A stretch of DNA of 18,675 nucleotides, from the NCBI GenBank assembly GCA_964510165.1, contig CAZEBC010000066.1, positions 1 through 18,675 on the forward strand, given 5' to 3'. The notes under the pieces were generated by a model, which was not told the origin of the DNA, ran no database searches, and was given only the letters and a program-made list of their open reading frames with translations. This stretch comes from an uncultured bacterium. GTDB taxonomy: Bacteria; Abyssobacteria; SURF-5. The translations under genes were made by a program, and so were the position numbers. Every line of letters begins with the position of its first letter. The first letter of the stretch is position 1. Shown here piece after piece: positions 153 through 18,675 of this stretch.

Positions 153-665
153 ATGAGTAGAATCAAGAGAAGCGGCATGATTACGATGTTTCTCGTACTG
201 TCGTTGTTGGCGTATCCATTTGCGGATGTCGCGACGGCGGCTCCCATTGGAGAACCTTTGGTGCTGAAGGCTGGGCCTCTGAAGGGCGCCGTAACCTACA
301 CGAGCGGCCGACCGGTGGCCAATGCCACCGTAAAGGTATTGGGCAAGGACGGCGCCACGGTTGCAAAAGGGCTCACTGACAAGGCGGGCCAATTCAGCCT
401 CAAGAGCTTGGACGCGGGCACGTACACGCTGAATGTCGGTGGCAAGTATGACCTTCCGCTTGTCCTTAAGGCCGAGGCCGCAGCGTCGGAGATGAAAGTC
501 GTAGTGCCGGAGAAGACGGCGGCCGCTGCTGGGGCGGCGGGCGGACTCACGATGACCCATGTCATCGTTGGCGGCGTTGTGGTGGCTGTGATAGCCGGCG
601 TCGCGATAGCCGCGTCTGATAGTGACGGGAGCAGCCACGGCACTCCGCCGCCGGTCAGCCCCTGA
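153..665 (+). CDS. Small secreted protein (170 aa): signal peptide, carboxypeptidase-regulatory-like (prealbumin-like beta-sandwich) domain, Ala/Gly linker, C-terminal hydrophobic helix and Ser/Asp/Pro tail
   Basis: GGAGG at 141-145 lies 7 nt before ATG153, which is preferred over TTG96 in the ORF track. The N-terminus MSRIKRSG-MITMFLVLSLLAYPFADVATA|AP fits a Sec signal. The pattern G.V...GRPV.NATV...TD..GQF....L.AGTY.L.V matches the carboxypeptidase-regulatory-like domain by eye. The protein ends AAAAGAAGGL-TMTHVIVGGVVVAVIAGVAIAA-SDSDGSSHGTPPPVSP. Confidence 0.8.
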   Translation: MSRIKRSGMITMFLVLSLLAYPFADVATAAPIGEPLVLKAGPLKGAVTYTSGRPVANATVKVLGKDGATVAKGLTDKAGQFSLKSLDAGTYTLNVGGKYDLPLVLKAEAAASEMKVVVPEKTAAAAGAAGGLTMTHVIVGGVVVAVIAGVAIAASDSDGSSHGTPPPVSP

Positions 666-767
666 AACTTCTCGCGCAGCCTCTTTCGAATGATGCATAA
701 GGCAGGCGTCTGGCGTGAGCACGGGACGCGGGTGAACGAAAGAGGCGATTGGGGACCGTCCTGTAAT

Positions 768-833
768 GTAGGGGCGCCCCCATGTGGGCGCCCGGGCGGC
801 CGTTCGTGGCGAGCCACGCCGAGCCGCCCCTAC
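768..833. repeat. Inverted pair of GTAG-tagged REP-like palindromes (REPIN-like)
   Basis: GTAG-GGGCGCCC-CCATGT-GGGCGCCC at 768-793. The reverse complement of 808-833 reads GTAGGGGCGGCTCGGCGTGGCTCGCC. The ends GTAGGGGCG (768-776) and CGCCCCTAC (825-833) are perfect inverted repeats. Confidence 0.7.
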
Positions 834-843
834 GGGGCGGCTT
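821..843 (+). terminator. GC-rich hairpin, possible terminator or mRNA-stability element between gene 1 and wza
   Basis: AGCCGCCCC-TAC-GGGGCGGCT forms a perfect 9-bp stem (822-830 with 834-842). No clear U-tract follows, so terminator function is uncertain. Confidence 0.35.
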
Positions 844-932
844 CGAACCACAGGACAGACTCATTGGCGCAGTCATTGGCGAAATTTGGGTGAAGACCTG
901 CTCGATGCAGAGAACCTGATGAGAGGTCTCAG

Positions 933-2105
933 ATGCGACTCGGTCACAGGGGTGAAGACCCGCATAAAGTCAAGCGCATTTCGGGGTTCATGCTCTCTTG
1001 CCTGATGATGAGCCTGTTGTTGGGCTGCAGTTCCGTGAAGGTTCGCAGTCCTGTCGGTCCGGCGGCGGGAGCTCAATACGTATCTTTTTCGAACGACCAG
1101 AGTCGGCAGTTGGCCGCCAGCACCCAATACCTGTTGTCGGAGCGGGCCGAGGATTATCGCATAGGCCCCGAGGACATGCTGGAGGTCACCATCTTTGAGT
1201 GGGAGTTGAGGGAGGAAACCAAGACGGTGGACGTTCGTGTCGCCGAGAGCGGCAGCATATCCCTGCCGGTGATCGGCGATATCGAGGCGGGCCAGAAAAC
1301 GGTCGCCGAAGTGAAGGGCATGATTGAAGACCGTCTGGTGGGTGGCGGTTTCATTATGGCCCCTCGCGTGAGCGTGAACGTGAAGGAATATCGAAGCAAG
1401 AAAGTCGCTGTCGTAGGCGCCGTCACTGACCCCGGCGTCTATACGCTTCGCCAGAATGTCACCACGTTGTTGGACATTCTTTCCCTGGCGGGCGGGTTAA
1501 ACGACAGAGCGGGGAACCTGCTGTATGTGGTGCGCCCGTCTGTCTCTGCGCAGGATTTTCTCCCTCACACGCCCGGCGCCGCCCCTGCCGAGGAGCAACT
1601 GCTGCAAGCGGCGGCCACAGGAAATCCGGGCAATCCCTCTCGGGCCGGAATCGGCGGCAGGTCTGCGGTTGAGAATCACGGAGAGGTCATCGCGGTTGAC
1701 CTGTACGAGTTAATGGAGATGGGCAATCTCTCGCTTAATGTCGTGCTTCAAACTGGAGATATTGTTAACGTCCCGGAGGCGAAGCGATTCGCGGTTATCG
1801 GGTATGTCGGAGAGCCTGGGAGTTTCCCATTGAAAAAACCCACGACGGTGCTCGAGGGGATCGCGATGGCCAAGGGGTTGAAGGTTCCGGATGCGTCTCC
1901 GGGTTATTGTACGCTGAGGCGCATGACCCCCGAAGGCGAGAAGATAATCCCTCTGAATTTACAGGCGATATCGGACGGCAAGGCGCCCAACCTGTATCTG
2001 CAGCCCGACGATGTGATCGAGGTGGGCCAAACCCCCGGACGGAAGGCCTTCCTAGGCGTGGTCGACGGTCTGAGGTACATTTTCAACGTGGGTTGGAGCC
2101 TATAG
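933..2105 (+). CDS. wza: Polysaccharide biosynthesis/export (OPX, Wza-family) lipoprotein with Poly_export and SLBB domains
   Basis: Lipobox LLG-C at residue 32. Poly_export signature YRIGPEDMLEV...VRV..SGSISLPVIGDIEA. SLBB segments VAVVGAVTDPGVY and VIGYVGEPGSF, with LQTGDIVNVP and LQPDDVIEV. GAGAGG lies upstream of ATG933, and the gene sits directly before wzc. Confidence 0.93.
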   Translation: MRLGHRGEDPHKVKRISGFMLSCLMMSLLLGCSSVKVRSPVGPAAGAQYVSFSNDQSRQLAASTQYLLSERAEDYRIGPEDMLEVTIFEWELREETKTVDVRVAESGSISLPVIGDIEAGQKTVAEVKGMIEDRLVGGGFIMAPRVSVNVKEYRSKKVAVVGAVTDPGVYTLRQNVTTLLDILSLAGGLNDRAGNLLYVVRPSVSAQDFLPHTPGAAPAEEQLLQAAATGNPGNPSRAGIGGRSAVENHGEVIAVDLYELMEMGNLSLNVVLQTGDIVNVPEAKRFAVIGYVGEPGSFPLKKPTTVLEGIAMAKGLKVPDASPGYCTLRRMTPEGEKIIPLNLQAISDGKAPNLYLQPDDVIEVGQTPGRKAFLGVVDGLRYIFNVGWSL

Positions 2106-2156: not shown

Positions 2157-4394
2157 GTGAAAGAACAGATGGAACTGATGAACCGCAAGGCAGAACTGTC
2201 GGCGTGGGCGAGCCTGAATGTCGGTCCTCATCTTAAAGATTATCTCAGGGTTGTGAGCGTTCGGCGCTGGGTATTCCTCTGCGCGTTCGTGTCGGTCGTG
2301 CTGACTGTCGCGGTGTGGGTGTTTGTGCGCACACCCATATACCGGGCCGAAAGCATGCTCTTGATCGAGCCGGTGAAGGTTAATCTCACCGAATTCAAGG
2401 CAGTCTACGATCCCACGCTGGGGGAGGCGGGCGGACACCTCGCCAATCAGGAGTTTCTGGAAACACAGTACAACTTGATCGTCTCGCGTCCTTTGCTCGA
2501 GCAGACTTTTGAGAAGTTCGGATACGGGTCCATGCAGGAGTTCAAAGACAAGAAGGAGCCGATCGAGAAATTTGCCAAATTGTTCCGCGTCATCCCCGTT
2601 CGAAGGTCGCGTCTTGCGACAGTCACATTCGAATGGAAAGACCCCGAATTGGCCGCGCGGACCGTGGATTTCCTGGTGAACGAGTATATTGCCGACTATC
2701 GCAAGCGCGCGCTCGGGGTAACCCGTGAGGGCTTGTCGGCATTGCGCGAAAAGGCGGAGGAACTGAGGCCGCAGGTTGACGCCAAGGCCAACGAGTTGCA
2801 GAAATTCAGGGCTGATCACAATATGGTGTCGCTTGAAGAGACCCAAAACATAGTGGTGGAGCGCCTGAAAGACATCAGCAAAAACCTGACCGAAGTGGAG
2901 AGGATTCGTATTGAAGTCGAAAGCGACTATCTGTCCATCGAGCGCGCTCTCGCCGGCGAATTCCAGATGGAGAATCTGCCCGAAATCGCGAGCAGTGAGA
3001 CGATTCGCGACCTCAAGCTGGAATACATAAAGACGAAGCAGCGGTACAGTGATCTTGGAAAATCATTTGGGCCGAACCATCCGGAGGTGAAGGCGGCGCA
3101 GGCTATCCTCGACGCGATCAAGGAAAAGACCGAAGCCGAGATGATAAGCATTCTCAAGACCGTCAAAGCCGAGTACGAACGCGCGGTCAATCGGGAGAAG
3201 CAACTGCGAGATGAACTCCGGAAGCAGGAAGAGGAGGTTATGGAGTTTAACCGGCTCGCCGTCGAATACAAGGCGCTGGCGGACGACTGCGATACTTTGA
3301 GACGAACATACAACGCCGTTGCGAAACGCATCGAGGAGATCGAGATCGCAACCGCCGCCGGCTCGAAGGGGGATAACATATTCATCATTTCAGCTCCGCG
3401 AGTTCCCATGAAACCGGTCAAACCGCGCAAGGCGCTTTCGCTTGCGATAGCCTTGGTCTTTGGGGCCTCACTGGGCGTGGGTCTGTGCTTCCTGGTCGAC
3501 TATCTCGACACCACGGTCAAGACCAAGGAGGACGTCGAGGCGCTCATGGGTGTGCCTGTGATCGGCTATATCCCCGGCATCGAGGACGGCCACGCAAACG
3601 GCGTCCACTCAGACTTGCCAGTCGAGTTGCACTTGTTGAAGGAACCGCGTTCGGCGGTTGCCGAGGCGTTCAGGTCTATTCGCACTGCTATTGCGTTTTC
3701 CAGCAATAATGGAGGTCTGAAGCAGCTCATCGTCACGAGTTCAGACCGTAGCGAAGGCAAATCAATGAGCAGCGTGAACATATCGGTCGTCATGGCGCAG
3801 ACCGGAAAGAGCGTGTTGCTGGTTGATGCGGACTTGAGGAAGCCGAGACTGCACAAGGTGTTCGGAGTCGCGCCCTCGCCGGGGCTTAGCAACCTGCTGG
3901 TTGGTGAGGGGGCTTCCTCTCTTGACGAGGCCATCCGAAAAGTGGAAGGAATTGACAACCTCTATTTGCTTCCGAGCGGTCCGATGCCCCCAAATCCCGC
4001 GGAACTTCTCCAAAGTTCCCGGATGAAGCAGTTGCTTGAGGAAATGGGGAGCCGATTTGACATCACGATATTGGATACGCCTCCCTTGGTGAGCGTTACT
4101 GACGCCGCCGTCCTGTGTCAGTACGTGAAGAACGTGGTGATGGTCGTTCGCAGCTTTTCCACGCAGCGAGAAATCATTGCTCGCGCCAGAGAAATCATTT
4201 CGGAAACCAACAGCAAGGTGCTCGGGATGGTGCTTAACAACGTTGATGTCCCAAGGGGCGAATATCACAGCTATTACTACGGCTACTATTACGGATACGG
4301 CGACGAGGACGGGAAGAGAACAAAGAAGGGGCTGAGCAGGAACGGCAAGAGCCGGCGCAAAGCTCTTGCGAGAGGCAATGGAAGCAACACTTGA
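2157..4394 (+). CDS. wzc: Polysaccharide co-polymerase / BY tyrosine autokinase (Wzc/GumC family)
   Basis: GGAGG precedes GTG2157. Two TM helices flank a coiled-coil periplasmic region (GPNHPEV, PVKPRK). The kinase domain shows AEAFRSIRT, Walker A SSDRSEGKS, A' LLVDADLRKP and Walker B ILDTPP. C-terminal Tyr cluster EYHSYYYGYYYGY. Confidence 0.96.
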   Translation: MKEQMELMNRKAELSAWASLNVGPHLKDYLRVVSVRRWVFLCAFVSVVLTVAVWVFVRTPIYRAESMLLIEPVKVNLTEFKAVYDPTLGEAGGHLANQEFLETQYNLIVSRPLLEQTFEKFGYGSMQEFKDKKEPIEKFAKLFRVIPVRRSRLATVTFEWKDPELAARTVDFLVNEYIADYRKRALGVTREGLSALREKAEELRPQVDAKANELQKFRADHNMVSLEETQNIVVERLKDISKNLTEVERIRIEVESDYLSIERALAGEFQMENLPEIASSETIRDLKLEYIKTKQRYSDLGKSFGPNHPEVKAAQAILDAIKEKTEAEMISILKTVKAEYERAVNREKQLRDELRKQEEEVMEFNRLAVEYKALADDCDTLRRTYNAVAKRIEEIEIATAAGSKGDNIFIISAPRVPMKPVKPRKALSLAIALVFGASLGVGLCFLVDYLDTTVKTKEDVEALMGVPVIGYIPGIEDGHANGVHSDLPVELHLLKEPRSAVAEAFRSIRTAIAFSSNNGGLKQLIVTSSDRSEGKSMSSVNISVVMAQTGKSVLLVDADLRKPRLHKVFGVAPSPGLSNLLVGEGASSLDEAIRKVEGIDNLYLLPSGPMPPNPAELLQSSRMKQLLEEMGSRFDITILDTPPLVSVTDAAVLCQYVKNVVMVVRSFSTQREIIARAREIISETNSKVLGMVLNNVDVPRGEYHSYYYGYYYGYGDEDGKRTKKGLSRNGKSRRKALARGNGSNT

Positions 4395-4428
4395 TAGAGA
4401 CAGTGGGCTGCCATTCTGAGCATCTGCA

Positions 4429-4447
4429 CTCCCGCCTGCGGCGGGAG
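4429..4447 (+). terminator. Hairpin downstream of wzc, either a terminator-like element or a degenerate palindromic repeat unit
   Basis: CTCCCGCC-TGC-GGCGGGAG forms a perfect 8-bp stem. No strong U-tract follows, and the core resembles the adjacent TCCCGC...GCGGGA repeats. Confidence 0.35.
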
Positions 4448-4470
4448 ACTTGACTAAGAAACAGCAATTT

Positions 4471-4563
4471 TGGATTCTCGCTTTCGCGGGAATGACGGTA
4501 TGGGTGAGCATCTCAATAAGTCATTCCCACATTCCAAATGTCATTCCGAAAGCGGGAATCCAG
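4471..4563. repeat. Cluster of CGTC-tagged / dRS3-like (ATTCCC-N8-GGGAAT type) palindromic repeats
   Basis: 4471-4497 is TGGATTCTCGCTTTCGCGGGAATGACG (reverse complement CGTCATTCCCGCGAAAGCGAGAATCCA). A partial copy GTCATTCCC lies at 4520-4528. An oppositely oriented copy GTCATTCC[3-nt gap]GAAAGCGGGAATCCAG lies at 4540-4563. Confidence 0.8.
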
Positions 4564-4617: not shown

Positions 4618-5421
4618 ATGATTGATTTGCACGCCCACATTCTCCCGGGGCTCGATGACGGACCCGCCAGGATGGAAGAGGCTGTGGCCATGTGTCGGAT
4701 TGCCGCCGACGACGGAACAATGGCAATAGTGGCCACCCCTCACATGTTCGGCGAGATTCACAATGTGAGCCGCTCCGAAATACTTGAAGGCGTACGCGAG
4801 TTGCAAACGGCGCTTGAGCGAGAAGGTATCGGCCTGGTTGTAAAGCCGGGCGCCGACGTTCACGCGGTTCCCAATCTCAACAAACTGCTTCGAGGCGGAG
4901 AGGTGATGACCATCGGCGACGGCGGCAAGTACCTCTTGATAGAGCTACCCCATGACGTGTTGCCGCAGGGATTGGCCGGACTGCTCTTCTCGATACAGGT
5001 GCTCGGCCTGATTCCGATCATTTCACATCCTGAACGCAACCTCGCGGCTCAAGCCAACCCTTTCAGCCTGACCGAGTACGTTGAGAGCGGCAACCTCATC
5101 CAATTGACTGCGGGGAGTCTGCTGGGAGAATTCGGTGAGGATGCCCGACAGTGCGCAGAAACATTGCTCGTTTCTCGCCTCGCGCATCTGATTGCGAGCG
5201 ACGCGCATTCGGCGGAGCGGCGGCGTCCCGGCCTGAGTCACGCGCTCGCGCGTGTCCGACAACTCTTGTCGGAGGACGAAGCCGAAGAGATATTCGTGCA
5301 TCGCCCGCTCAAGGTGTTGGCCGGATGCTATTTTGCCGTGCCTGAGCCGATCAGACAGATAGAGAAGAAGAGAAAGTTTGCGTGGATGGGTTTCAGGGAC
5401 GGGGCCAAGTCCGCTGTCTGA
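4618..5421 (+). CDS. cpsB: CpsB/CapC-family PHP-domain tyrosine-protein phosphatase (267 aa)
   Basis: Starts with the family N-terminus MIDLHAHILPGLDDG at ATG4618. Other motifs: ATPH, LLIELP, SHPERN, ASDAHSAERR. It follows wzc. The track's extension from 4450 is translated repeat DNA. Confidence 0.92.
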   Translation: MIDLHAHILPGLDDGPARMEEAVAMCRIAADDGTMAIVATPHMFGEIHNVSRSEILEGVRELQTALEREGIGLVVKPGADVHAVPNLNKLLRGGEVMTIGDGGKYLLIELPHDVLPQGLAGLLFSIQVLGLIPIISHPERNLAAQANPFSLTEYVESGNLIQLTAGSLLGEFGEDARQCAETLLVSRLAHLIASDAHSAERRRPGLSHALARVRQLLSEDEAEEIFVHRPLKVLAGCYFAVPEPIRQIEKKRKFAWMGFRDGAKSAV

Positions 5422-5439
5422 CAGCCGTCCCGGATCGCC

Positions 5440-8400
5440 GTGCACAGGATGCGGGTTGTCGGAAGCCTTTGTCGAAAAATGAAACGAATGCCATCACGTA
5501 ATACGGAGCGGACGTATGCCCGCAAGGGTGGCATTGACATCGCCATCGAGGCAATCCTCATCGCAACGCTCGTGCTTTCACCCCTTGCCTTAGGCTCGGT
5601 GGCTCCTTGGGCTCGAAGCCTGCTCATGCTCGTCGGACTCCTCCTGTTTAACTTGTGGCTGCTGCGCTCGGTGCTTGCCGGTGAAATCTCTATCATGAAG
5701 AGTCCGGCGTGGATTCTTGTTGCTCTGTTCATTGTTCTTGCATTCATTCAAGTCATCCCCTTTCCACCTGGTGTCCTGCGCATACTCTCTCCCGCCGCAT
5801 GGCACAGCTATTCCGAGGCCTTGGGCGAACGGTTTCCTGCAGGAAGCGTAAGAACGCTCTCTCTGAATCCGTATTACACGCTAAGAGAAATCATGAGACT
5901 TGCCGCAGTAGGCATGGTTTTCTTCATGGTTCTCAATTCGGCGAGGGCGCGGTGGCAGGTGAAGGGGCTGGCATTTGCGCTTATGGCCGTCGGTTCATTC
6001 GAGGCCCTGTACGGACTTGCCGAGCAGTTTTCCGGGCACAAGCATATCTTCTGGCTCGCTCGACAGCATCATCTTGAGGCAGTCACCGGCACATTTCACA
6101 ACAAGAACCACTTTGCAGGATTGCTCGAGATGGTGATACCCCTGACGCTGGGATGTCTCGTTGCGCTCGACAGGTCCCGTGCCAGGGATTCTTCAGCGCG
6201 GGCTTCGGGCCTTGGTAAGCAGATCACGCTTGCCGCCTTAACGATAATCATGATCGTCGCAGTGTTCTTCTCGCTTTCACGGACGGGGATCGTGTGCGTC
6301 ATTGCCTCGATAGCCGCGCTCCTGCTGATTGCGGCGGCGCAGGCGCACTTTCGAGGTTACGCATTTGCAGTGATTGCGATAGGCGCGGCTGTAGCGACGA
6401 TAGCCGTAGCGATCGGAATTGATTATGTCATCGCAGCGGTCGGGGACGTTGCGGGCGGGCAGTCGGCATCGTGGATAGAACGCCTGATTCTTGCCCGCGG
6501 GGCTCTTGCGCTTATCCGAGATTACCCGCTTTTTGGAACCGGCCTGGGAACCTTCGCGGGTACGTTTGGCGGCTACCAGTCTCCTCATTTCGCCGACGCA
6601 TGGGTGAATTTCCTGCACAATGACTGGCTCCAGATATTCTGTGAGATGGGTTTATTAGGAGGGGCCATAGTCGTTGCCGGCACGTTGTGGGTTGTGCACA
6701 GACTGTTCAAATCGATAAGGAGGCAAGACGACACCTTCCTTCGATGGATGGCGACAGGCGCGTTGCTCGGCGTGCTTTCGATGCTGTTTCACAGCTTTCT
6801 GGACTATAACCTTTCCAGGATTACCTCGAACGGGATTGCCTTTGCGGCCACTTTGGGAATAGGCATTGTGGCGGCTAATATGGAAGCAGGCCAGGAACGC
6901 TTCATCGGAGGTTTCTGGCGGCTTCGCCTCGGTCAGCTTCCCGTTCGAATGGCTGTCGTTTCGATCGGACTGGGCGCCTCAGTCTGCGCGCTACCGGCAT
7001 TGCTCAAATCCGCTGCAGCCGATATCTCGTTCAACCGATATCTTGCGGAGACAACCGGAAAGACTGAAGATTATTTCTTCCTCCCTGTTTGCACGGATGC
7101 GTCAGACGAAGATGGGGACTCCGGCGTCAAGCACCTGCTAAAAGCATTGGAGAACCAGCCGCGCAATCCCGAGTATCTCTACCATTGCGCCCTGTACTCG
7201 CTTCGGTGCGCCGAGGAATTTCTGCGTTGCGAATCCAAACGCCGCGCCGTGGCGCTTCTAGGGCCCGCATCGAAAAAGGGTGAACCCGAACTCGAGCATG
7301 TGGCCACCGCTTTGGCCAATAATCTGAGGCCGTTGACAATTGCGGAACGAAGCCCTCATCTGGTCACGGCACTGGATTTTATGAACAAGGCCATTGAAAC
7401 GGCGCCGACAGAAGCGCGGTATCACATTGCGTGCGCAAAGATTCTGGCCGAATTGAATGGGTATACGCAGGCTCGACGTGAAGTCGAAACCGCGCTGCTG
7501 TTCGCGCCGGCCAGCCCCGATGTCCTGCTCGAGTCGGCCAGGATTCTTGTTACTGGAGACGATGAATCTTCGGATTCGAACACCGAAGCTGTCAGTTTGG
7601 CTCAGTCATACCTGCGCGCGACGATGTACGCCAACCCATCGTATGCCGAAAGGGTTTACTCCCTGGCGCGTTCGATGGATGAGCGCCAGGCGCTCCTTTT
7701 CTCAATTACGCCTCCGAGCCTTAAAGCATATGAGGCGCTTTACCTGACCTGTTGGAAATCGGGGCAATGGGATGCTGCGCTGGACTGTCTGGACGCGTTG
7801 GACCACATGGCGGACCGCCGCCAGGCTCTCGGCGTTCACGTCGCCCTCGCCGACATCGAGAAGATGGCTCACGTGGCGGCGTCGGGTGAACCGATAAAGG
7901 GCGCGGCCGCATATGACCCGCGCACGCCGCTACATATCAAAGCATCAATAGCTCAGCGGCGCGGCGTCATATTTGGAATCCTGGGCCGATGGGATGAGCG
8001 CTCCGGGGCGGCGGCGAGTTACCGAACGTGTATGCGTGAGGGCGACGAGAAGCTGCGTCTTGAGGCCGAACGGCTGCAACGCCTTGGCCGGTACCGGGAG
8101 GCTGCTGCGACTTATCTTGATATCCTTGAACGGGATTGGTCTGATCCGGGTGCACTGCTTGAGCTCGCCGAGCTTGCGTCGCTCCCGGGAATGGCGGACT
8201 CCATGCCGCAGTGGAACGGTCCGCTCGATCTCCTGTATCGCCTTGTCATCAACGCCACTGAATTATCGCCCGATACCTACGAGCAGGCACTCCGACTCCT
8301 GGACGGCCACTCCTTGCGCGGTCCCTACGATACGGTCACCGGCGCCTTTATTCGAGGCGCGGGCGCGATCCTGGCGGGTCGGCCGGAAGAAGGCATCTCA

Positions 8401-12957: not shown

Positions 12958-13950
12958 ATGGAGACTGTTAATCCTTTTTTCATAATAGGCGCTCAGAGGT
13001 CAGGCACAACGTTGCTTCGATTGATTCTGAACGCGCATTCCAAGATGGCAATACCCGAAGAAGGAACGTTTTGGATGCCTCTTATTCGGGCGAGACGCCG
13101 CGATTATTCCAGGCCGATTCGGGGAAAGCTGCTCAATCGATATGTTGAATACATCGGGAGGAACAGCCAGTTCCGCGCTTGGAAAATGGACGCTGGTGAA
13201 ATGTTCAAGGACATTCTGTGTCGAAAAGAGGTGACCCTGAGAGAGTTAATGGAAGCATTATATCTGCAATACGCTCAAGCAAACGGCAAGCTGTACTGGG
13301 GAGACAAGACGCCGAGTTTCTTTCGGATGATAGATGAACTGTCGCAGATATTTCCAGCCGCAAAGTTCATACACGTTGTCAGAGATGGGAGAGATGTCTT
13401 CTTGAGTTTGCGAAACAGAGACCCTCGGAGGAACAACATCGCCTTGGCGGCGCTGGAGTGGAAATACAAAGTGCTCAAGGCGAGAGATTCCCTCAGCCGC
13501 TTACACTCGGACCGAAAAATAGAAGTGAAGTACGAGGAGATATTGGCGCAGCCGGAAGACGAAATCGGGGAGTTATGTAAGTTCGTCGGCGTGCCCTTCG
13601 AGCGCGGCATGCTTGATTATCATGCGTCAAGCGGCAACTTCATCGGTCGCCAGCATTCCGATCTCATTTTCAAGCCGATTTCCATGAGCAACTCAGGCAA
13701 GTGGAAAGCCCAACTGACGCCAGAGGAGAAGCAGACGTTTGTCTGTGTAGCCAGCGACTGTCTTAATCTTCTTGGATATGAGACTGCCTGCGCTGCCAGG
13801 CTTCAGATCAAAGCGAAGGCTAAATCAATGATGAAGCTCGGCCTGGGCCTGCCCTGCAGAAGCATGGAGGTCGGTCTTACGATCGTAAGGCTCGGCTTGT
13901 CCTCTCGCCTGGGGTTGGCAACTGACGCTGCGGGAAAGGGATCGGAATGA
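12958..13950 (+). CDS. PAPS-dependent sulfotransferase 2 (Sulfotransfer_3 / TPST-like type)
   Basis: AGGAG upstream. 5'-PSB motif PFFIIGAQRSGTTLLRLILNAH, then WGDKTP, 3'-PB motif FP.AKFIHVVRDGRDV..S, and VKYEEIL..PE...LCKFVG. Confidence 0.93.
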   Translation: METVNPFFIIGAQRSGTTLLRLILNAHSKMAIPEEGTFWMPLIRARRRDYSRPIRGKLLNRYVEYIGRNSQFRAWKMDAGEMFKDILCRKEVTLRELMEALYLQYAQANGKLYWGDKTPSFFRMIDELSQIFPAAKFIHVVRDGRDVFLSLRNRDPRRNNIALAALEWKYKVLKARDSLSRLHSDRKIEVKYEEILAQPEDEIGELCKFVGVPFERGMLDYHASSGNFIGRQHSDLIFKPISMSNSGKWKAQLTPEEKQTFVCVASDCLNLLGYETACAARLQIKAKAKSMMKLGLGLPCRSMEVGLTIVRLGLSSRLGLATDAAGKGSE

Positions 13951-15380
13951 CGCCTTCTTCGGCTCAGCTCGGATGCGAATCGCCCATGGAAGAAACGGCA
14001 ATTCAAGTTCCCTATTCGGGCTGTTCTGATCGCTCGCTTGTTTCCAAGGCCAAGAAAGCGGCGATGTTGTTTCTCGTGCTACTGCCGTTCCAGAAGTTCC
14101 CGGAGACCGTGTGGGCTGGGAGATTTCCGGAGGGTGTTGATTATCATTCCATTATGCCGTTCCATATAATGGCGTTACGATATTTGGATGAGGTCGCGAT
14201 CTTCCTTTTCTCCGCCGTCCTGCTCACGTTCCTTCTCCTCAGTCCCGGAAGATACAGAGTGAAGCGTCTTCCCTTTGTGGCGTACATTGCGTGCTTTGTC
14301 GTGATCACCGGAGCCGAATTGCTCATAAATCGCGTTTCCCCGCTGCAAGGGGTTTTCGCGACGTATGATTATATCAAGAACTTTATCGTCTTATGCCTGT
14401 TCAGTTGGCTCAGCTTCACTGAGGATGACTTCAAAGACATCCTCGCTCTGCTGAGGAGGATAACGCTTGTGCTGGCTCTCTTCGGCATTGCCGGAGAAGC
14501 GGCGGCGATGATGTTCGAATCGGGGATCGGCTTGCTTGTGGCGGACGATCAAAGGTTTGGGCTGTACCGCGTCATTTCCCTCACGGGCGCCGGTAACTGG
14601 AACTATCTCGGCGTCTATGCCGCGCTGATCTTCTTCCTTACCTACATCACTGACCGCAAACGGTTCATGAATTACCTTGAACTGTTCTTAATAGGCTCAT
14701 TGATAGTCTTGACCTTTTCGAGGCAGACCTGGATCATTTTCGGGGTATTATTTTTACTCCTCGGAAAGAGGCGTACGGTCGTCATCGCCTCAGTCGCGAT
14801 GGTGTATGTCGCGATCGGACTTGCTCCACATTTCTCGGAGATCGCCGAACTCGCGAATTTTAGGACTTCGTTCGATCCCGATGAATATTTCAGGCTTTAC
14901 GCCTTTTACGAAGCAACGAGTCTTTTCTTTGACAACCCGATACTGGGCGTCGGTCCGGGCATGTTCGGCAACCTCGCTTCTGTCATCTTCGACAGCCCGA
15001 TATACGATTACTGGCCCGCTTACTTCAGAAATTTCGCCGTGCAAACCAGGGGAATAGACCAGTTCTGGCCTGCTCTTTGGGCAGACACCGGCATAGCGGG
15101 CACGCTTGCATTTGCACTAATATTCGCGGGCATCTATGCGGCCCTTTACCGAGCGTCTCGCATATATGAGCGCTTGGGCAATCGTGGAATGGTGCGGATG
15201 GGAAGGGCTTTGTCCTTCTTTCTGATCGGGTTGGGAATCATGGGACTATTCGGCGGTTTGAACGCGGCATTCGTCAGTTTCACATATTTCGCTCTTGCAG
15301 GAATGTATCTTTCAAGTTGTCCCGATTCGCCTGAACCGTCGTGGGAGCGCACGCTCGATGAAGGTCCTGCTGGCCAATAA
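13947..15380 (+). CDS. wzy: Multi-TM Wzy/O-antigen-ligase-superfamily protein, probably the repeat-unit polymerase
   Basis: ATGA overlap with sulfotransferase 2. About 10-12 TMs. Motifs NYLG, LTFSRQ, FRL, PILGVGPGMFG and DQFW....DTGIAG. It lies among the repeat-unit genes. Polymerase rather than ligase is an inference. Confidence 0.7.
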   Translation: MTPSSAQLGCESPMEETAIQVPYSGCSDRSLVSKAKKAAMLFLVLLPFQKFPETVWAGRFPEGVDYHSIMPFHIMALRYLDEVAIFLFSAVLLTFLLLSPGRYRVKRLPFVAYIACFVVITGAELLINRVSPLQGVFATYDYIKNFIVLCLFSWLSFTEDDFKDILALLRRITLVLALFGIAGEAAAMMFESGIGLLVADDQRFGLYRVISLTGAGNWNYLGVYAALIFFLTYITDRKRFMNYLELFLIGSLIVLTFSRQTWIIFGVLFLLLGKRRTVVIASVAMVYVAIGLAPHFSEIAELANFRTSFDPDEYFRLYAFYEATSLFFDNPILGVGPGMFGNLASVIFDSPIYDYWPAYFRNFAVQTRGIDQFWPALWADTGIAGTLAFALIFAGIYAALYRASRIYERLGNRGMVRMGRALSFFLIGLGIMGLFGGLNAAFVSFTYFALAGMYLSSCPDSPEPSWERTLDEGPAGQ

Positions 15381-16575
15381 ATTCTTCTATCCCAGAGGCG
15401 GCGACGCCGCGGTCTTTTTCGCGACCGCTATGCTCTTGAAGGAACACGGGCACGATGTGTCCTTCTTCTCGATGAAGAGCGCCGATAATCTCGAATGCCC
15501 ATACTCCCGCCACTTTGTCTCTTATGTGGACTTTAATGGAAAAGGCGGGATTCTCCAACGGGTGAGGGCCGCAGCGCGGGTGCTCTATTCGTTCGAAGCA
15601 AGACAGAAGATCGCACAACTCATAAATGAAGAAAGACCGACCCTCGCCCATCTTCACAACATATACCATCAACTCTCGCCCTCCATCATTGATGCCCTTA
15701 AGAAGAGGGGAATTCCCACGGTCATGACGCTGCATGACTATAAACTCATATGCGCCGCCTATACCCTTCTGTCCGATGCCGGGATATGCGAGCGCTGCGG
15801 CCACGGGGCATACCACAACGCAATCAAGAATGCCTGCATAAAGGGATCGAAAGCAAAGAGCATGCTCGGTGCGCTTGAGATGTACCTGCATCACCGTGTG
15901 CTCAAGCCTTATGAAAAGGTGGATGTGTTCATCTCGCCGAGCCGGTTCCTCAAGCAGAAGACCGAGGAGATGGGGTTTAAAGGAAAGGTTGTCCATCTGC
16001 CGAATTTCATTAACCCCTCGGACTACGAGCCGTGCTTCGACTCGCGGAACGGCACGATCGTCTACTTCGGACGTCTCTCGCGAGAGAAAGGCCTCAGGAC
16101 TCTCATTGATGCAGTCAAGGGGCTGGACATCTCGCTGAAGGTCATCGGCACCGGCCCGGAAAAGCAGAACCTCGAAGCGAAAGTGGTCGCGGAACGAATA
16201 GCGAACGTCAGTTTTCTCGGATACAAGACTGGCCGCGAATTGCACAGGGAGATTGCAAACAGCGGCTTTGCAGTTGTCCCATCCGAATGGTATGAAAACA
16301 ATCCGCGCGCCATTATCGAGGCGTTTGCGCTCGGAAAGCCCGTCCTCGGCGCCAACATCGGCGGCATCCCGGAACTGGTTCGAAGCGGAGAGACCGGCCT
16401 TACGTTTGAGAGCGGAAACGCCAATGATTTAAGGGAGAGAATCCTCCATCTCATGAAAGATAAATCCGCTCTCTCTCGGATGGGCCGGGCCGCCCGCTGC
16501 TTCGTCGAGAAAGAGCTAAATCCGCGTTCGCATTACGAAAGACTGATGCAAATCTACAAGATGGCCGGAGCATAA
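15358..16575 (+). CDS. Glycosyltransferase family 4 (GT-B, retaining), 405 aa
   Basis: The true start is likely ATG15358 (MKVLLANKFFYPRGG), with GGGAG upstream. Motifs GHDV, HLHN, MTLHDYKLIC, YFGRLSREKG, PSEWYENNPRAIIEAFALGKPV (E-x7-E) and IGGIPELV. Confidence 0.93.
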   Translation: MKVLLANKFFYPRGGDAAVFFATAMLLKEHGHDVSFFSMKSADNLECPYSRHFVSYVDFNGKGGILQRVRAAARVLYSFEARQKIAQLINEERPTLAHLHNIYHQLSPSIIDALKKRGIPTVMTLHDYKLICAAYTLLSDAGICERCGHGAYHNAIKNACIKGSKAKSMLGALEMYLHHRVLKPYEKVDVFISPSRFLKQKTEEMGFKGKVVHLPNFINPSDYEPCFDSRNGTIVYFGRLSREKGLRTLIDAVKGLDISLKVIGTGPEKQNLEAKVVAERIANVSFLGYKTGRELHREIANSGFAVVPSEWYENNPRAIIEAFALGKPVLGANIGGIPELVRSGETGLTFESGNANDLRERILHLMKDKSALSRMGRAARCFVEKELNPRSHYERLMQIYKMAGA

Positions 16576-16589
16576 CAAGGAATCATTAT

Positions 16590-17606
16590 ATGGAAGCAGC
16601 CGTCATAACCACATACCGATGCAACGCCAGATGCCATATGTGCAATATCTGGAAATATCCCACCCGACCGGAAGAGGAGTTCAAGCCCGACCTGCTTGAG
16701 AAGCTTCCGCCACTTGCATTCTGCAACATCACCGGCGGAGAGCCTTTCCTTCGCGATGACATTGATGAAATAGTCTCCATCGTCACGCGCAAATCCATGC
16801 GGGTCGTGATAAGCACCAACGGCTACATGACTGACAGAATCCTGGATGTGGCAAGAAGGAATCCGTCCATCGGGATCAGGATCAGCATCGAGGGCCTTCC
16901 CTCGGCCAACGACGAGTTGAGGGGCATCAGAAACGGCTTCGACCATGGTCTCAGGACACTGCTCGAACTCCAGCGCATTGGCCTGAAGGACATCGGCTTC
17001 GGCATCACAGTCTCCGACCGTAACGCCGAAGACATGCTCGAACTGTACCAGCTCGCAAAAGCGATGAGACTTGAATTCGCCACCGCCGCCGTCCACAATT
17101 CCTACTATTTTCACAAGCATGACAATCAGATAGAGCGAACGGAACATGTCGTCGAATGCTTCAAGCGGCTCGTTGATGAACTCCTGCGTTCGCGCCGGAT
17201 CAAGGACTGGTTCCGCGCTTATTTCAACTATGGCCTTATGAACTATATCAAGGGTTTGCCGCGCCTTCTTCCATGCGAGGCCGGGACGGAAAATTTCTTT
17301 GTCGACCCATGGGGCGAAGTGAGGCCCTGCAACGGTCTCGAGGAGCATATCTGGATGGAGAGCATGGGCAACATGAACCTCGATTCGTTCGAAGACATCT
17401 GGAACGGAGAGAAGGCGGAGGCCGTCAGAAGAAAAGTCCGCACCTGTCCAAAGCATTGCTGGATGATCGGGACTGCTGCGCCCGCCATGAAGAAATATCT
17501 GGCCGCACCGCTTCGCTGGGTGCTGAAGAACAAGATCAGGAGTATTCTCAACGGAAGCTCATGCCCAGTATTGCCAAGATTCGACGAGAGGGACTCTAAC
17601 GCATGA
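16590..17606 (+). CDS. Radical SAM enzyme with C-terminal SPASM/twitch-like domain, function unknown
   Basis: CxxxCxxC motif (C11, C15, C18), TGGEP, STNG and ISIEG. C-terminal PCEAG...VDPWGEVRPC...GN....FEDIW...CPKHC (C229, C247, C286, C290). AAGGA upstream. Confidence 0.93.
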   Translation: MEAAVITTYRCNARCHMCNIWKYPTRPEEEFKPDLLEKLPPLAFCNITGGEPFLRDDIDEIVSIVTRKSMRVVISTNGYMTDRILDVARRNPSIGIRISIEGLPSANDELRGIRNGFDHGLRTLLELQRIGLKDIGFGITVSDRNAEDMLELYQLAKAMRLEFATAAVHNSYYFHKHDNQIERTEHVVECFKRLVDELLRSRRIKDWFRAYFNYGLMNYIKGLPRLLPCEAGTENFFVDPWGEVRPCNGLEEHIWMESMGNMNLDSFEDIWNGEKAEAVRRKVRTCPKHCWMIGTAAPAMKKYLAAPLRWVLKNKIRSILNGSSCPVLPRFDERDSNA

Positions 17607-18675
17607 AGGTTGTCGTTCTCGGTACACGCGGTTTTCCCGCGGTGCAGGGCGGCGTCGAGAAGCACTGCGAGGAACTCTATCCGAGGCTTGCGGCGCTCGG
17701 CTGCGACGTCACCGTCTTTACAAGAACACCGTATCTCCCCAAAGAAGACAGATTGAGCGAATGGAAAGGCGTCAGGTTTCTCCATCTTTGGTGCCCACAC
17801 CAAAAGGCCTTTGAGGCGATTACCCATACGTTCATAGGGATACTCAAGGCGCGTACTCTCAAGCCTGATATACTACACATTCACGCGATTGGCCCATCCC
17901 TCCTCACGCCGTTCGCCAGAGCTCTCGGCCTGAAGGTGGTCTTTACGCACCATGGCCCCGACTATCTGCGGGCGAAATGGGGCGGCATGGCAAAGGCCAT
18001 TCTCCGACAAGGCGAGAAGTTCGGCGTGAAATACAGCCACAAGATAATCGCGATATCAGAAGGCATAAGAAGACACATCCAGCAACAATTCGGCGCGAAC
18101 GCCTTGTTCATCCCCAATGGCGTGAGCGTCCTGCCTCCTCTGCCAGCCGGCCAAGGACTCCGGCGATGGGGCCTGACACCCAAAGGCTATGCTTATACGG
18201 CATGCAGGTTTGTTCCCGAGAAAGGGCTTCATGATTTGGTCGATTCATACAAGTCCATACCCAAGCCCGCGTTCAAGCTGGTCATCGCCGGTGACGCCGA
18301 CCACGAAACAGAATACAGCCGCGGCCTCAAGCGCCTCTGCGCCGGTACCGACGGCGTGGTAACCACCGGGTTCATCTCAGGCCCCACCCTGGCCGAGTTG
18401 TTCTCCAACGCCGGCCTGTTCGTGTTGCCCTCTTATTATGAGGGGCTTCCCATCGCATTGCTCGAAGCCCTGAGCTATGGGCTTCCCGTCCTCGCAAGCG
18501 ATATCCCTCAGCACAGAGAGATTCCCTTGAGCCAAAAGAGATATTTCCCCGTCGGAAATGTCGCCGCATTGTCTCAATCCCTCGTCGAAGGTTTCGCCAC
18601 CGGCATTTCCACCCAGGAACGAGACCGCTATGTCTCGCTCCTCAATGAGAACTACAACTGGGACCTCATCGCCGA
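17603..18675 (+). CDS. Glycosyltransferase family 4, 3'-truncated by the window edge and absent from the supplied ORF track
   Basis: ATG17603 overlaps the radical SAM stop (ATGA). Manual translation gives MKVVVLGTRGFPAVQGGVEKHCEELYPRL...HIHAIGP...THHGPDYLRAKW...IPNGV...RFVPEKG...FVLPSYYEGLPIALLEALSYGLPVLASDIP...YNWDLIA, with no stop before the window ends. Confidence 0.93.
   Translation, partial: MKVVVLGTRGFPAVQGGVEKHCEELYPRLAALGCDVTVFTRTPYLPKEDRLSEWKGVRFLHLWCPHQKAFEAITHTFIGILKARTLKPDILHIHAIGPSLLTPFARALGLKVVFTHHGPDYLRAKWGGMAKAILRQGEKFGVKYSHKIIAISEGIRRHIQQQFGANALFIPNGVSVLPPLPAGQGLRRWGLTPKGYAYTACRFVPEKGLHDLVDSYKSIPKPAFKLVIAGDADHETEYSRGLKRLCAGTDGVVTTGFISGPTLAELFSNAGLFVLPSYYEGLPIALLEALSYGLPVLASDIPQHREIPLSQKRYFPVGNVAALSQSLVEGFATGISTQERDRYVSLLNENYNWDLIA

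Follow-up and report, generated by a model that had tools for sequence, protein, structure and literature searches.

In the window, by which we mean the whole 18,675-nucleotide stretch analysed here, an uncultured bacterium carries a Wzx/Wzy-dependent locus for an exopolysaccharide or a capsule; the closest named relatives are Candidatus Abyssubacteria and Poribacteria MAGs. All 13 plus-strand genes fitted the expected families in Pfam and NCBIfam searches. The genes that the sequence-only reading had named on one strand were all recovered there, at or near their predicted positions, from the open reading frames and the family matches. As judged from the gene sequences, the product is probably a surface sugar polymer that carries sulfate. 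All features described below lie on the plus strand.

The gene at 153..665 encoded a small envelope protein of 170 aa matching the Pfam family PF13620 (CarboxypepD_reg, E 7e-12). A start at position 153, rather than at 96 or 117, was indicated both by a GGAGG sequence 8 nt upstream and by the alignment of homologues. The protein consisted of a signal peptide, a CarboxypepD_reg-type beta-sandwich, an Ala/Gly linker and a C-proximal hydrophobic segment (residues ~137–155), followed by a short acidic tail with a terminal Val-Ser-Pro. The signal looked cleavable and the C-proximal segment was similar in hydrophobicity to genuine TM helices; with a standard topology, the conserved C-terminus of the window protein is therefore predicted to be cytoplasmic. 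The Phycisphaerales subfamily was devoid of the C-proximal hydrophobic segment. Its Ser-Pro motif would be periplasmic, so that the two subfamilies would expose their C-termini in different compartments.

The small gene was separated from wza by a GC-rich structured intergenic spacer (666..932) with an RNA fold of -126.6 kcal/mol (z -3.2). None of 200 shuffled sequences folded equally well, and no Rfam family matched the spacer. The Wza-type outer-membrane polysaccharide export (OPX) protein (933..2105; Pfam Poly_export E 6.6e-18, SLBB_2 E 2.4e-19) possessed a lipoprotein-like LLGC signal and was 60% identical to its counterpart in L001. The next gene (2157..4394) encoded Wzc, in which a polysaccharide co-polymerase and a BY-tyrosine kinase are fused, and which had GNVR, AAA_31 and Wzz matches in Pfam. 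Its P-loop kinase domain scored 200.6 bits on the NCBIfam model TIGR01007 (cut-off 108), the C-terminus showed a Tyr cluster, and a 362-aa loop lay between two hydrophobic segments on the hydropathy plot. The CpsB/CapC PHP-type phosphotyrosine phosphatase was placed at 4618..5421 (PF19567 E 4.2e-47, residues 57–290). Its reading frame was open from position 4450, the domain and the homologues began at Met57 (nt 4618), and the homologues in related loci began at domain position 1.

The long Wzy_C/TPR protein of 1224 aa was encoded at 5440–9114, with start candidates at 5440, 5479 or 5488, and combined a Wzy_C match (E 2e-17, residues 267–411) with TPR matches. Its AlphaFold model (pLDDT 89, pTM 0.84) consisted of 13 TM helices, a TPR solenoid and a beta-sandwich. 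The membrane domain (5440..7056), which includes the Wzy_C region, had a WaaL-like fold, WaaL being the best fold match (E 1.9e-6 at TM-score 0.55; TM-scores 0.55–0.59 over the comparisons). The all-helical solenoid (residues ~561–1063, 7120..8628) was recognised by TPR_14, TPR_2 and TPR_16 and by the helical repeats of the model, and its fold matches corresponded to the OGT/SPY TPR superhelix. The C-terminal beta-sandwich (residues ~1068–1206, 8641..9057) was modelled with strands at pLDDT >90; it matched no Pfam family and yielded unnamed clusters only in the Atlas, and it was conserved across the long-protein family, for example at the invariant Trp1110. In the database, 54 of the 74 matches covered at least 90% of the protein, with 29–66% identity and lengths of about 1150–1350 aa. 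Searched with the family profile, the solved membrane proteins gave a single match, WaaL (7tpg_B, E 8.5e-8). In this alignment the invariant His393-Asn-Asp of the long protein fell on the WaaL His-Asn-Asp, and an Arg...Gly-x-Gly-x-Gly-x-Phe loop was likewise aligned. WaaL is described as depending on His and Arg residues of the Wzy_C region, which are also conserved in PglL (PMC3643930). Because of the 13 TM helices and of the 10 Lys/Arg among the first 29 residues, the TPR solenoid is predicted to be periplasmic, and the conserved motifs of the enzyme would face the periplasm. This predicted plan resembles that of PglS, for which 13 TM helices together with a C-terminal domain in the periplasm are described (PMC12800693), and the C-terminal TPR motifs described in the O-oligosaccharyltransferases WsfB and PglL (PMC2943079).

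The remaining genes were devoted to the glycan. A priming polyprenyl-phosphate glycosylphosphotransferase (9234..10646; Pfam Bac_transf E 1e-70; 436.8 bits on TIGR03025, cut-off 295.6) was followed by a Wzx flippase (10648..12027; Polysacc_synt E 1.2e-20, Polysacc_synt_3 E 6.5e-15). Two sulfotransferases came next, the first at 12024..12947 (Sulfotransfer_3 E 1.1e-15 and Sulfotransfer_1 E 2e-13, both above cut-offs) and the second at 12958..13950 (Sulfotransfer_3 E 4.9e-38), the latter being 40% identical to its counterpart in the Nitrospinota locus L003. A short Wzy_C protein of 477 aa (13947..15380; Wzy_C E 1.9e-10) preceded a GT4 glycosyltransferase (15358..16575, frame open from 15295; Glycos_transf_1 E 7.6e-31), a radical SAM/SPASM enzyme (16590..17606; Radical_SAM E 9.7e-17, SPASM E 5.1e-10) and a second GT4 glycosyltransferase cut by the window edge (17603..18673; Glyco_transf_4 E 8.7e-24, Glycos_transf_1 E 3.2e-23). 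These three proteins were 54%, 70% and 44% identical, respectively, to those of L003, where the GT4–radical SAM–GT4 order was the same. All 45 NCBIfam matches of the radical SAM enzyme were below cut-offs, and its subfamily was left unassigned.

From the compared sequences, the locus is best described as two layers, a conserved assembly and export module and an exchangeable glycan cassette. The module comprised five genes, encoding the small beta-sandwich protein, Wza, Wzc, the CpsB phosphatase and the 1224-aa Wzy_C/TPR protein. Their order was kept across genomes of Poribacteria (L001), Phycisphaerales/Planctomycetota (L002, L004, L007, L008, L011 and L012 in Phycisphaerales, L023 in Planctomycetota) and Lentisphaerales (L022). 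The cassette was made of the priming transferase, Wzx, the two sulfotransferases, the short Wzy and the GT4–radical SAM–GT4 block. By tblastn, the sulfotransferases, radical SAM enzyme, GT4s and short Wzy had no counterpart in the loci with the module order, and the sulfotransferase/radical SAM/GT4 block was common only to L003, from one Nitrospinota genome. Sulfation and the radical SAM enzyme, which had been read as parts of the conserved system, thus belong to the exchangeable cassette. Among the deepest orthologues of the long protein, L015 and L017 showed no exopolysaccharide context (Pfam), and no wza, wzc or cpsB match was found by tblastn in L018 and L019.

A strong homologue of the small protein (E<=1e-29) was present at 12 of the 24 loci with an orthologous Wzy_C/TPR protein and at none of 55 comparison loci, in which another Wzy_C protein matches the N-terminal domain only. 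The linkage of the small protein with the ligase-TPR protein and wza/wzc, which had been suggested as a check, was thus found in several phyla. In the other 12 orthologous loci the fetched flanks contained no small gene; three of these (L009, L013 and L014) have little or no upstream sequence. The usual immediate downstream neighbour of the small gene was wza rather than the long gene, and in the window the small gene precedes the long gene by 4.8 kb, with wza, wzc and cpsB in between. The C-terminus was nearly invariant in the alignment (n = 15), with Pro last in 15/15, Ser penultimate in 14/15 and Val, Ile or Leu before Ser in 13/15; two further members also ended in Val-Ser-Pro. Of the 4037 ORFs in the window and the loci that reach 100 aa, only 17 had a V/I/L-Ser-Pro ending, and 13 of these belonged to the small-protein family. 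The codons of Val, Pro and the stop varied, which points to selection on this C-terminus at the protein level. The Ser codon was of the AGY class in 13/13 loci.

The two Wzy_C proteins behaved very differently. For the short one, which is located among glycan-specific genes and is likely the repeat-unit polymerase Wzy, tblastn over the 79 loci found no relative (E<=1e-5), whereas the long proteins retained 27–43% identity across phyla, in loci with wholly different glycan genes. Polymerases are repeat-unit specific. The reading that fits the long protein best is a conserved terminal transferase of the ligase type, and not a repeat-unit polymerase. A second, short Wzy_C gene (424–527 aa) was observed beside the long one in 6 of the 15 related loci scanned with Pfam, in addition to the window, which fits one polymerase and one ligase-like enzyme. 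The proposal of a polymerase plus a separate ligase, already made in the sequence-only reading, would suit these loci; it does not extend simply to L004, L005, L007, L024 and L025, where Pfam found no second Wzy_C within 10 kb and where the long protein could therefore be the polymerase. Four of these five possessed a polytopic membrane protein of ~430 aa, of no known family, which could be the polymerase instead. A WaaL loop motif was found in 10 of the 11 long proteins examined, but 4 of the 7 short Wzy_C proteins had it as well, so that it does not separate ligase from polymerase.

We tentatively favour, at somewhat short of even chances, the account in which the locus has two layers, the short Wzy polymerises and the long protein is a WaaL-like transferase that does not polymerise. 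In this model, the cassette would make a repeat unit, probably sulfated, which the short Wzy would polymerise. The long protein would take the Und-PP-linked glycan at the periplasmic face of the inner membrane, and would then hand it to an acceptor or release it. The periplasmic TPR solenoid and beta-sandwich may dock a partner, either the small protein, the Wza-Wzc conduit or both. The step proposed for the long protein would correspond to the terminal step which is still unassigned for many exopolysaccharides. Against this account stand the loci with no small gene in the fetched flanks, the deepest orthologues of the long protein with their different gene context, the loci where Pfam found no second Wzy_C, the loop motif shared by both classes, and the predicted cytoplasmic C-terminus of the small protein, across the membrane from the TPR domain and the catalytic-side motifs of the enzyme, which are predicted to be periplasmic.

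The nature of the acceptor leads to two other readings. The long protein could be a protein O-oligosaccharyltransferase which loads the small protein, most likely on the Ser of the motif, with the exopolysaccharide or with a single repeat unit, giving a membrane-anchored glycoprotein that bears a sulfated glycan. We consider this unlikely, although the co-occurrence of the small and long genes, their proximity in L010 and L016 where wza is not adjacent, and the near-invariant Ser-Pro with its uniform Ser codon all speak for it. TfpO, TfpM, PglL, PglS and the S-layer enzymes WsfB/WsaB share the Wzy_C catalytic domain of the long protein, and TPR motifs are not foreign to the group. According to PMC9829042, TfpO and TfpM each act on a small protein, encoded immediately upstream of the enzyme, whose C-terminal Ser/Thr they glycosylate, and TfpM transfers long capsule chains; for PglL, the genes of enzyme and target are described as neighbours in 21 of 31 species (PMC3643930). 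The conserved C-terminal motif and the TfpO/TfpM precedent support the earlier surface-glycoprotein interpretation, which overall is partly supported. On the other hand, the Ser is penultimate and not terminal, and residues added after the Ser are described as blocking glycosylation by TfpO (PMC9829042). The candidate acceptor is a CarboxypepD_reg beta-sandwich and not pilin-like, its gene is not adjacent to that of the enzyme, and the enzyme is twice as long as these O-oligosaccharyltransferases, with no match to the PglL_A family PF15864 in the Pfam search of the window. The enzyme and export genes also occur without the small gene in L006, L024 and L025. The small protein is thus a candidate acceptor at most, and the topology predicted for it, with a cytoplasmic motif in the window protein and a periplasmic one in the Phycisphaerales subfamily, argues against that role. 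Alternatively, the long protein could be a true WaaL-type ligase acting on lipid A-core or another membrane lipid, giving a lipid-anchored capsule in which the small protein has no direct part. WaaL (Cupriavidus metallidurans, PDB 7TPG/7TPJ) shares the Wzy_C domain and is the best solved match, with aligned His-Asn-Asp and Arg/Gly-rich loop, and WaaL-like enzymes are described as terminal transferases to lipid A-core (PMC12419801). This is still less probable, as the solved WaaL chain has 403–413 residues whereas the long protein has 13 TM helices and ~700 more residues in its predicted periplasmic extension, as its gene lies within the Wza/Wzc export module and not in a core-oligosaccharide cluster, and as the small-protein linkage would be left without explanation.

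The long protein might also act as a polymerase or co-polymerase of the Wzy type, which its TPR and beta-sandwich domains would tether to the Wzc/Wza conduit. In that case the short Wzy_C protein would be a second polymerase or a ligase, and the small protein would be an unrelated accessory of the export channel in the periplasm, such as a glycan-binding adaptor. The Wzy_C domain is common to polymerases and ligases, five related loci have no second Wzy_C in the flank by Pfam, and the usual place of the small gene next to wza would suit a channel accessory. Periplasmic TPR scaffolds that connect synthesis with outer-membrane export are well described in synthase-dependent systems (PMC12220298). 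The conservation of the long protein among unrelated glycan genes, the isolation of the short Wzy_C, the ligase WaaL as nearest solved relative by both profile and fold, and the ~430-aa candidate polymerases all make this improbable.

The analogy with PEP-CTERM/exosortase (XrtA) loci, put forward initially, fails. Both have EPS export genes, a ligase-like membrane protein, TPR proteins and secreted proteins with a C-terminal hydrophobic anchor, but the small protein of the window has neither a PEP motif nor a basic cluster after the hydrophobic segment. All XrtA-associated NCBIfam models were below cut-offs. Exosortase and sortase families had no Pfam match within the window, in agreement with the first reading as regards exosortase, and none among 196 proteins scanned from 15 related loci. 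The synechan (xss) locus of Synechocystis 6803 is likewise of the Wzx/Wzy type, with two sulfotransferases of different subfamilies among glycosyltransferases (PMC8205485). The window differs by its phylum and by having no XssQ/R/S regulators, and sulfation of its product is only predicted; it contains a Wzy_C/TPR protein and a radical SAM enzyme, both absent from xss as described there. The Group 1 capsule/colanic acid pathway has in common with the window a priming transferase, Wzx, Wzy, the Wza OPX, a phosphotyrosine phosphatase and a Wzc co-polymerase/BY-kinase with a Tyr cluster. In the window the phosphatase is of the PHP type (CpsB) instead of the low-molecular-weight Wzb, and the conserved module is larger by two proteins, the small beta-sandwich protein and the Wzy_C/TPR protein.

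The window was occupied by a single, tightly packed array of genes for 13 proteins, all on the forward strand. The array opened with the gene of a small protein of 170 residues (153–665) containing a CarboxypepD_reg beta-sandwich (Pfam, E 7e-12). It was followed by Wza (933–2105; Poly_export and SLBB domains by Pfam), Wzc (2157–4394; a GNVR domain, a kinase domain scoring 200.6 bits on TIGR01007 against a cut-off of 108, and a C-terminal tyrosine cluster), a CpsB PHP-type phosphatase (4618–5421; CpsB_CapC, E 4.2e-47) and a long protein of 1224 residues combining Wzy_C (E 2e-17) and TPR domains (5440–9114). These five genes are called the conserved module below. The remaining genes encoded a priming polyprenyl-phosphate glycosylphosphotransferase (9234–10646; Bac_transf, E 1e-70; 436.8 bits on TIGR03025, above the cut-off of 295.6), a Wzx flippase (10648–12027; Polysacc_synt, E 1.2e-20), two sulfotransferases (12024–12947 and 12958–13950; Sulfotransfer_3, E 1.1e-15 and 4.9e-38, respectively), a second, short Wzy_C protein (13947–15380; E 1.9e-10), and two GT4 glycosyltransferases (15358–16575 and 17603–18673; Glycos_transf_1, E 7.6e-31 and 3.2e-23) flanking a radical SAM/SPASM enzyme (16590–17606; E 9.7e-17 and 5.1e-10). 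The components of the Wzx/Wzy pathway were all present (priming transferase, Wzx, Wzy candidate, Wzc, Wza and phosphatase), and the machinery is the standard one with a PHP-type phosphatase. The short Wzy_C protein presumably acts as the repeat-unit polymerase.

The gene content named in the sequence-only reading was confirmed, since each item was matched by the Pfam and NCBIfam scans of the 13 proteins, the Pfam scan of the window detected neither an exosortase, in agreement with that reading, nor a sortase family, and the scans for other signals were null. No Rfam family was found in the window, and consensus promoters (8 versus 8.6 expected) and terminators (22 versus 18.3 expected) occurred at about the frequency expected by chance. 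A repeat scan of the window returned nothing except the codons of the tyrosine cluster, and Pfam recognized no PAPS-synthesis gene within it. Between the small gene and wza, a GC-rich spacer of 268 nt (666–932) matched no Rfam family and had a predicted fold more stable than 200 of 200 shuffled sequences (z -3.2). Its role could be that of a terminator or attenuator, letting the small gene outexpress the export genes. The spacer between wzc and cpsB (4395–4617) showed a GC hairpin directly 3′ of the wzc stop, and a short inverted motif, GTCATTCC / GGAATGAC, occurred in it several times, resembling small dispersed palindromic repeats. A long ORF open from position 4450 ran through this spacer, and its beginning is probably not the true cpsB start. 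The window Wza (933–2105) stopped soon after its second SLBB domain and may be devoid of the long C-terminal helix that spans the outer membrane; it may then require a separate beta-barrel partner, of which none was seen in the window.

A database search with the long protein produced 74 relatives, of which 54 covered at least 90% of its 1224 residues, with 29–66% identity and a similar length. The few named relatives belonged to Poribacteria and Planctomycetes and were annotated merely as “O-antigen ligase family”. A profile of 32 relatives was used to retrieve 79 genomic loci with flanks of up to 10 kb per side (designated by L and a number). The 24 loci considered orthologous possessed a full-length long protein, or one cut by the contig end inside the conserved module, and in the 55 others the match was limited to the N-terminal Wzy_C domain. 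On sequence grounds, the long protein is a member of a coherent and widespread family.

The AlphaFold model of residues 17–1216 (pLDDT 89, pTM 0.84) displayed 13 transmembrane helices, an all-helical TPR solenoid (approximately residues 561–1063) with a fold like the OGT/SPY superhelix, and a C-terminal beta-sandwich (approximately residues 1068–1206). The N-terminus was basic, with 10 Lys/Arg among the first 29 residues. From this and the 13 helices we therefore infer that the TPR and beta-sandwich domains are periplasmic, and the invariant motifs of the family, situated at loop-facing helix ends, would be so too. When a profile of 14 membrane domains was compared with solved proteins, the sole match was the ligase WaaL (chain 7tpg_B, E 8.5e-8). 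The invariant His393-Asn-Asp of the long protein was aligned with the His-Asn-Asp of WaaL, and the Arg...Gly-x-Gly-x-Gly-x-Phe loop was likewise aligned, the invariant Arg348 being located in the Arg-Leu...Gly-x-Gly part. In a fold search with the membrane domain, the same WaaL chain came first (E 1.9e-6, TM-score 0.55) and the SEDS proteins FtsW and RodA ranked next. A profile was required, as the PDB search with the single membrane-domain sequence gave no match. The full-length profile weakly matched one solved chain (9rmk_A, E 2.9e-4), which bears the name “oligosaccharyltransferase”, and the C-terminal beta-sandwich retrieved only generic or unnamed clusters from the ESM Atlas. His393 and Arg348 may be the counterparts of E. 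coli WaaL residues. The conserved His/Arg residues listed for the periplasmic loops of that enzyme in an excerpt of PMC3643930 are R215, R288 and H338. The resemblance to WaaL lies in the Wzy_C domain and the fold of the membrane domain; the genomic context differs, the gene of WaaL, which transfers its glycan onto lipid A-core, being found in an LPS core context and the long gene instead within an export module.

The distribution of the 13 window proteins over the 79 loci was established by tblastn, ORF inspection, a small-protein HMM and, for 196 proteins of 15 related loci, Pfam scans. The order small protein–Wza–Wzc–CpsB–long protein recurred in loci of Poribacteria (L001), Lentisphaerales (L022) and Planctomycetota (L023), and in the Phycisphaerales loci L002, L004, L007, L008, L011 and L012, the small gene being duplicated in tandem in L002. 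The small gene was shifted by approximately 3 kb in L005, and in L010 and L016 it was close to the long gene and not flanked by wza. A strong small-protein homologue (E 3e-29 or better) was found in 12 of the 24 orthologous loci versus none of the 55 others, all loci having been chosen via the long protein. Three of the 12 orthologous loci without the small gene (L009, L013 and L014) had little or no upstream sequence. The combination of wza, wzc and cpsB was detected by tblastn in 12 orthologous loci, and the small gene was present in 10 of these, the exceptions being L006 and L024. The linked small proteins were distributed over at least four phylum-level groups in addition to the window, and the closest relative of the window protein (72% identity) was labelled Candidatus Abyssubacteria. 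The small-protein family could not be delimited by its alignment profile, which gave 134,182 matches at E<=0.001 among 1.84 billion representatives, because giant multi-repeat adhesins share the CarboxypepD_reg/SdrD_B-type beta-sandwich. Word-based searches returned three proteins with the single sequence and nine with the alignment, one of them unrelated. One related locus (L025, 4907–6235) encoded upstream of wza a 442-aa protein whose last residue was aromatic, as in outer-membrane barrels.

The sulfotransferases, the radical SAM enzyme, the GT4 enzymes and the short Wzy_C protein were not kept with the conserved module. The cargo of other loci was different, with GT2 enzymes, aminotransferases, epimerases and methyltransferases, and one sulfotransferase in L001. 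Only the Nitrospinota locus L003 had a block in common with the window: GT4, radical SAM and GT4, identically ordered and accompanied by a methyltransferase and two sulfotransferases (window 15358–18673; L003 13582–19936, minus strand). The L003 block adjoined an orthologous long gene, and the 10 kb upstream contained neither wza nor wzc nor a small gene. The identity between the two loci reached 70% for the radical SAM enzyme, 54% and 44% for the GT4s and 40% for sulfotransferase 2, far above the 35% of the neighbouring long proteins, which suggests horizontal transfer between phyla. Sulfation and radical SAM tailoring are thus traits of an exchangeable glycan cassette.

The earlier interpretation was retained in part. 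The linkage of the small protein to the long gene, which gene neighbourhoods had been expected to reveal, was observed, whereas sulfation and radical SAM tailoring do not belong to the conserved core of the system and the analogy with PEP-CTERM/exosortase systems was abandoned. No PEP motif existed in the small protein, in which an acidic or Gly/Ser-rich tail with a Val-Ser-Pro end comes after the hydrophobic segment; Pfam found no exosortase in the window or among the 196 proteins of the 15 related loci; and the XrtA-associated models TIGR03027, TIGR03018, TIGR03007, TIGR03013, TIGR02917 and TIGR03088 all remained below their cut-offs in the window.

The polymer of the window locus is a candidate sulfated polysaccharide, both sulfotransferases exceeding the Pfam cut-offs and being located between wzx and wzy. 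The cassette with its sulfotransferases resembles the synechan xss cluster, for which an excerpt of PMC8205485 describes sulfotransferases embedded in a Wzx/Wzy cluster. It also resembles the sulfated capsule clusters reported for marine Gammaproteobacteria. The cassette, shared between distant phyla at up to 70% identity, widens the set of non-cyanobacterial sulfated-polysaccharide candidates. The radical SAM enzyme had no closer match in the PDB sequence search than the distant SPASM/twitch proteins SkfB and cytosylglucuronate decarboxylase (E about 1e-9 to 1e-8), and in the ESM Atlas it retrieved only generic or unnamed clusters. A sulfatase-family protein was encoded within the polysaccharide locus L008 (21525–22694) and an FGE-sulfatase-type protein near an orthologue of the long protein in L015 (16625–18478). 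Together with the sulfotransferases in L001, L003 and L030, they hint at a recurrent sulfate chemistry around the long-protein family.

The pairing of a WaaL-like/TPR enzyme with a motif-bearing small beta-sandwich protein in a five-gene module, associated with interchangeable glycan cassettes, is a new finding. No description of the module was found in the searched literature, a corpus that excludes most subscription journals, nor did any paper in it contain “carboxypeptidase regulatory-like” together with “polysaccharide export”. Excerpts of some of the papers joining “Wzy_C” and “tetratricopeptide” did not describe the architecture of the long protein within an export module.

We propose that the long protein may carry out the last, unassigned step of Wzy-dependent export. 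To our knowledge, how the finished Wzy-made polymer leaves the undecaprenyl carrier, and its final attachment, is still an open question. Here a WaaL-like enzyme bearing a large, putatively periplasmic domain for docking is kept with the export genes and not with the glycan-specific genes. With its small partner and the near-invariant C-terminal motif of the latter, it constitutes a concrete terminal-step candidate in several poorly studied phyla. The alternative is that the long protein is itself a polymerase. Among the glycan-specific genes of the window, a separate, short Wzy_C protein was encoded where a polymerase gene usually lies, and a second, short Wzy_C protein existed in six of the 15 scanned related loci. 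The long proteins were 27–43% identical across loci with differing glycan genes, and the short Wzy_C protein of the window had no relative detectable by tblastn in the 79 loci. This pattern is the one expected of a donor-tolerant transferase and not of a repeat-unit-specific polymerase. On the side of a polymerase, sequence motifs failed to separate the two activities. A WaaL loop motif (His, then Asn/Ser/Gln, nine residues, Gly-x-x-Gly/Thr/Tyr) was rejected as a discriminator, because four of seven short Wzy_C proteins had it as well as 10 of 11 long proteins; the His was often kept in the short proteins, too. When the short Wzy was compared by profile with the long family, the match was weak (probability 33%). 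Five related loci had no second Wzy_C by Pfam, and the most distant orthologues were outside polysaccharide loci (L015 and L017 by Pfam; L018 and L019 had no tblastn match to wza, wzc or cpsB). Four of the five loci encoded a polytopic membrane protein of approximately 430 aa and of no recognized family, which may be their polymerase. In Phycisphaerales, a polytopic protein of about this length was encoded between cpsB and the long gene in L004 (8619–9932), L005 (8683–9963), L006 (8725–10005) and L007 (4912–6225). The four copies were 38–55% identical to one another and had an acidic, Glu/Tyr-rich tail; they matched no Pfam family, had no counterpart in the window and could be an unrecognized polymerase.

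The small proteins shared a common order in an alignment of 15 members: a signal, the beta-sandwich, a linker, usually a Gly/Ala/Val-rich hydrophobic segment, and a short tail without a basic cluster. The window protein conformed, with a signal-like N-terminal segment and a C-proximal hydrophobic segment. The terminal residue was Pro in all 15, the penultimate one Ser in 14, and the preceding one Val, Ile or Leu in 13; two more database members likewise ended in Val-Ser-Pro. The Val was encoded by four codons (in addition to the Leu and Ile variants), the Pro by all four, and all three stops were used, the Ser codon being AGY in 13 of 13. Varied codons around a constant Ser therefore indicate selection on the protein, strict on Ser. 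The motif closed 17 of the 4037 ORFs with 100 aa or more in the window and the loci, and 13 of the 17 belonged to the small-protein family. The Phycisphaerales subfamily (L007 29–595, L008 5058–5615, L011 202–756, and the proteins P0231 and P0232) lacked the C-proximal hydrophobic segment, and its N-terminal segment was more hydrophobic, as though the anchor had been transferred to the N-terminus with the terminal motif retained. Its loci-encoded members shared a longer conserved Asp/Pro-rich tail ending in Asp-Glu-Asn-Val-Ser-Pro. In the long protein, the indels tracking this loss consisted of only three short loop gaps. In hydrophobicity sums, the value of the C-proximal segment of the window protein overlapped that of true transmembrane helices. 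With a cleavable-looking signal, such a segment would leave the Val-Ser-Pro tail of the window protein in the cytoplasm, whereas the tail of the Phycisphaerales proteins would be periplasmic, so that no single compartment-specific role fits both.

The small protein would be a conserved partner of the long protein, as acceptor or adaptor. If it were the acceptor, the long protein would be an O-oligosaccharyltransferase. The layout of the long protein, which also speaks for a non-polymerase role, is shared with protein O-oligosaccharyltransferases, for which excerpts describe 13 transmembrane helices with a periplasmic domain (PMC12800693) and a C-terminal TPR (PMC2943079). It has 13 modelled helices and a C-terminal domain, on the putative periplasmic side, in common with PglL, PglS, TfpO and TfpM, but the PglL-specific PglL_A (PF15864) was not matched at E<=0.01 in its Pfam scan. 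An excerpt of PMC9829042 describes two Wzy_C-family enzymes, TfpO and TfpM, whose substrate is a small protein encoded immediately upstream and glycosylated at its C-terminal Ser/Thr; the glycans attached by TfpM are long capsule chains, and its target site had been suggested by a conserved C-terminal residue. PglL genes adjoin the target gene in 21 of 31 species (PMC3643930, excerpt). The co-occurrence of the small and long proteins and the conserved Ser-Pro end are consistent with such a role. However, the Ser is penultimate, the small protein is not pilin-like, and the predicted cytoplasmic tail of the window protein is unfavourable. As no one compartment fits both subfamilies, we keep the acceptor role as a rival that is unlikely. 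The putative periplasmic part of the long protein was also modelled in complex with the mature small protein; one control scored too close to the pair, so that the model speaks for binding no more than against it. Were the partner the acceptor, both the O-oligosaccharyltransferase class and its short sequon would be new, which would interest glycoengineers; such a class is less probable than the terminal-step role. More doubtful still is the full proposal that the approximately 1200-aa Wzy_C/TPR proteins form a new polysaccharide-to-protein O-oligosaccharyltransferase class attaching whole chains (sulfated here) to the penultimate Ser of Val/Ile/Leu-Ser-Pro on the small beta-sandwich protein as a dedicated carrier, giving a bacterial proteoglycan and filling the gap at the end of Wzy-dependent export in Abyssubacteria, Poribacteria and the Planctomycetota/Lentisphaerota group.

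In a Nevskiaceae locus (Gammaproteobacteria; L076, 6994–7689), a 231-aa secreted protein outside the small-protein family, encoded directly after a shorter Wzy_C homologue, ended in Pro-Pro-Val-Ser-Pro, a single case that may be due to chance. Two Acidobacteriota loci that contained wza, wzc and the gene of a Wzy_C protein also encoded weak, more distant look-alikes of the small protein (L048, 3687–5044, as a tandem pair; L054, 13194–13838). The look-alikes comprised a beta-sandwich, a hydrophobic segment and a Ser/Pro-rich tail ending in Ser-Pro or Ala-Pro, and the pairing of small and Wzy_C proteins may extend past the TPR-bearing family.
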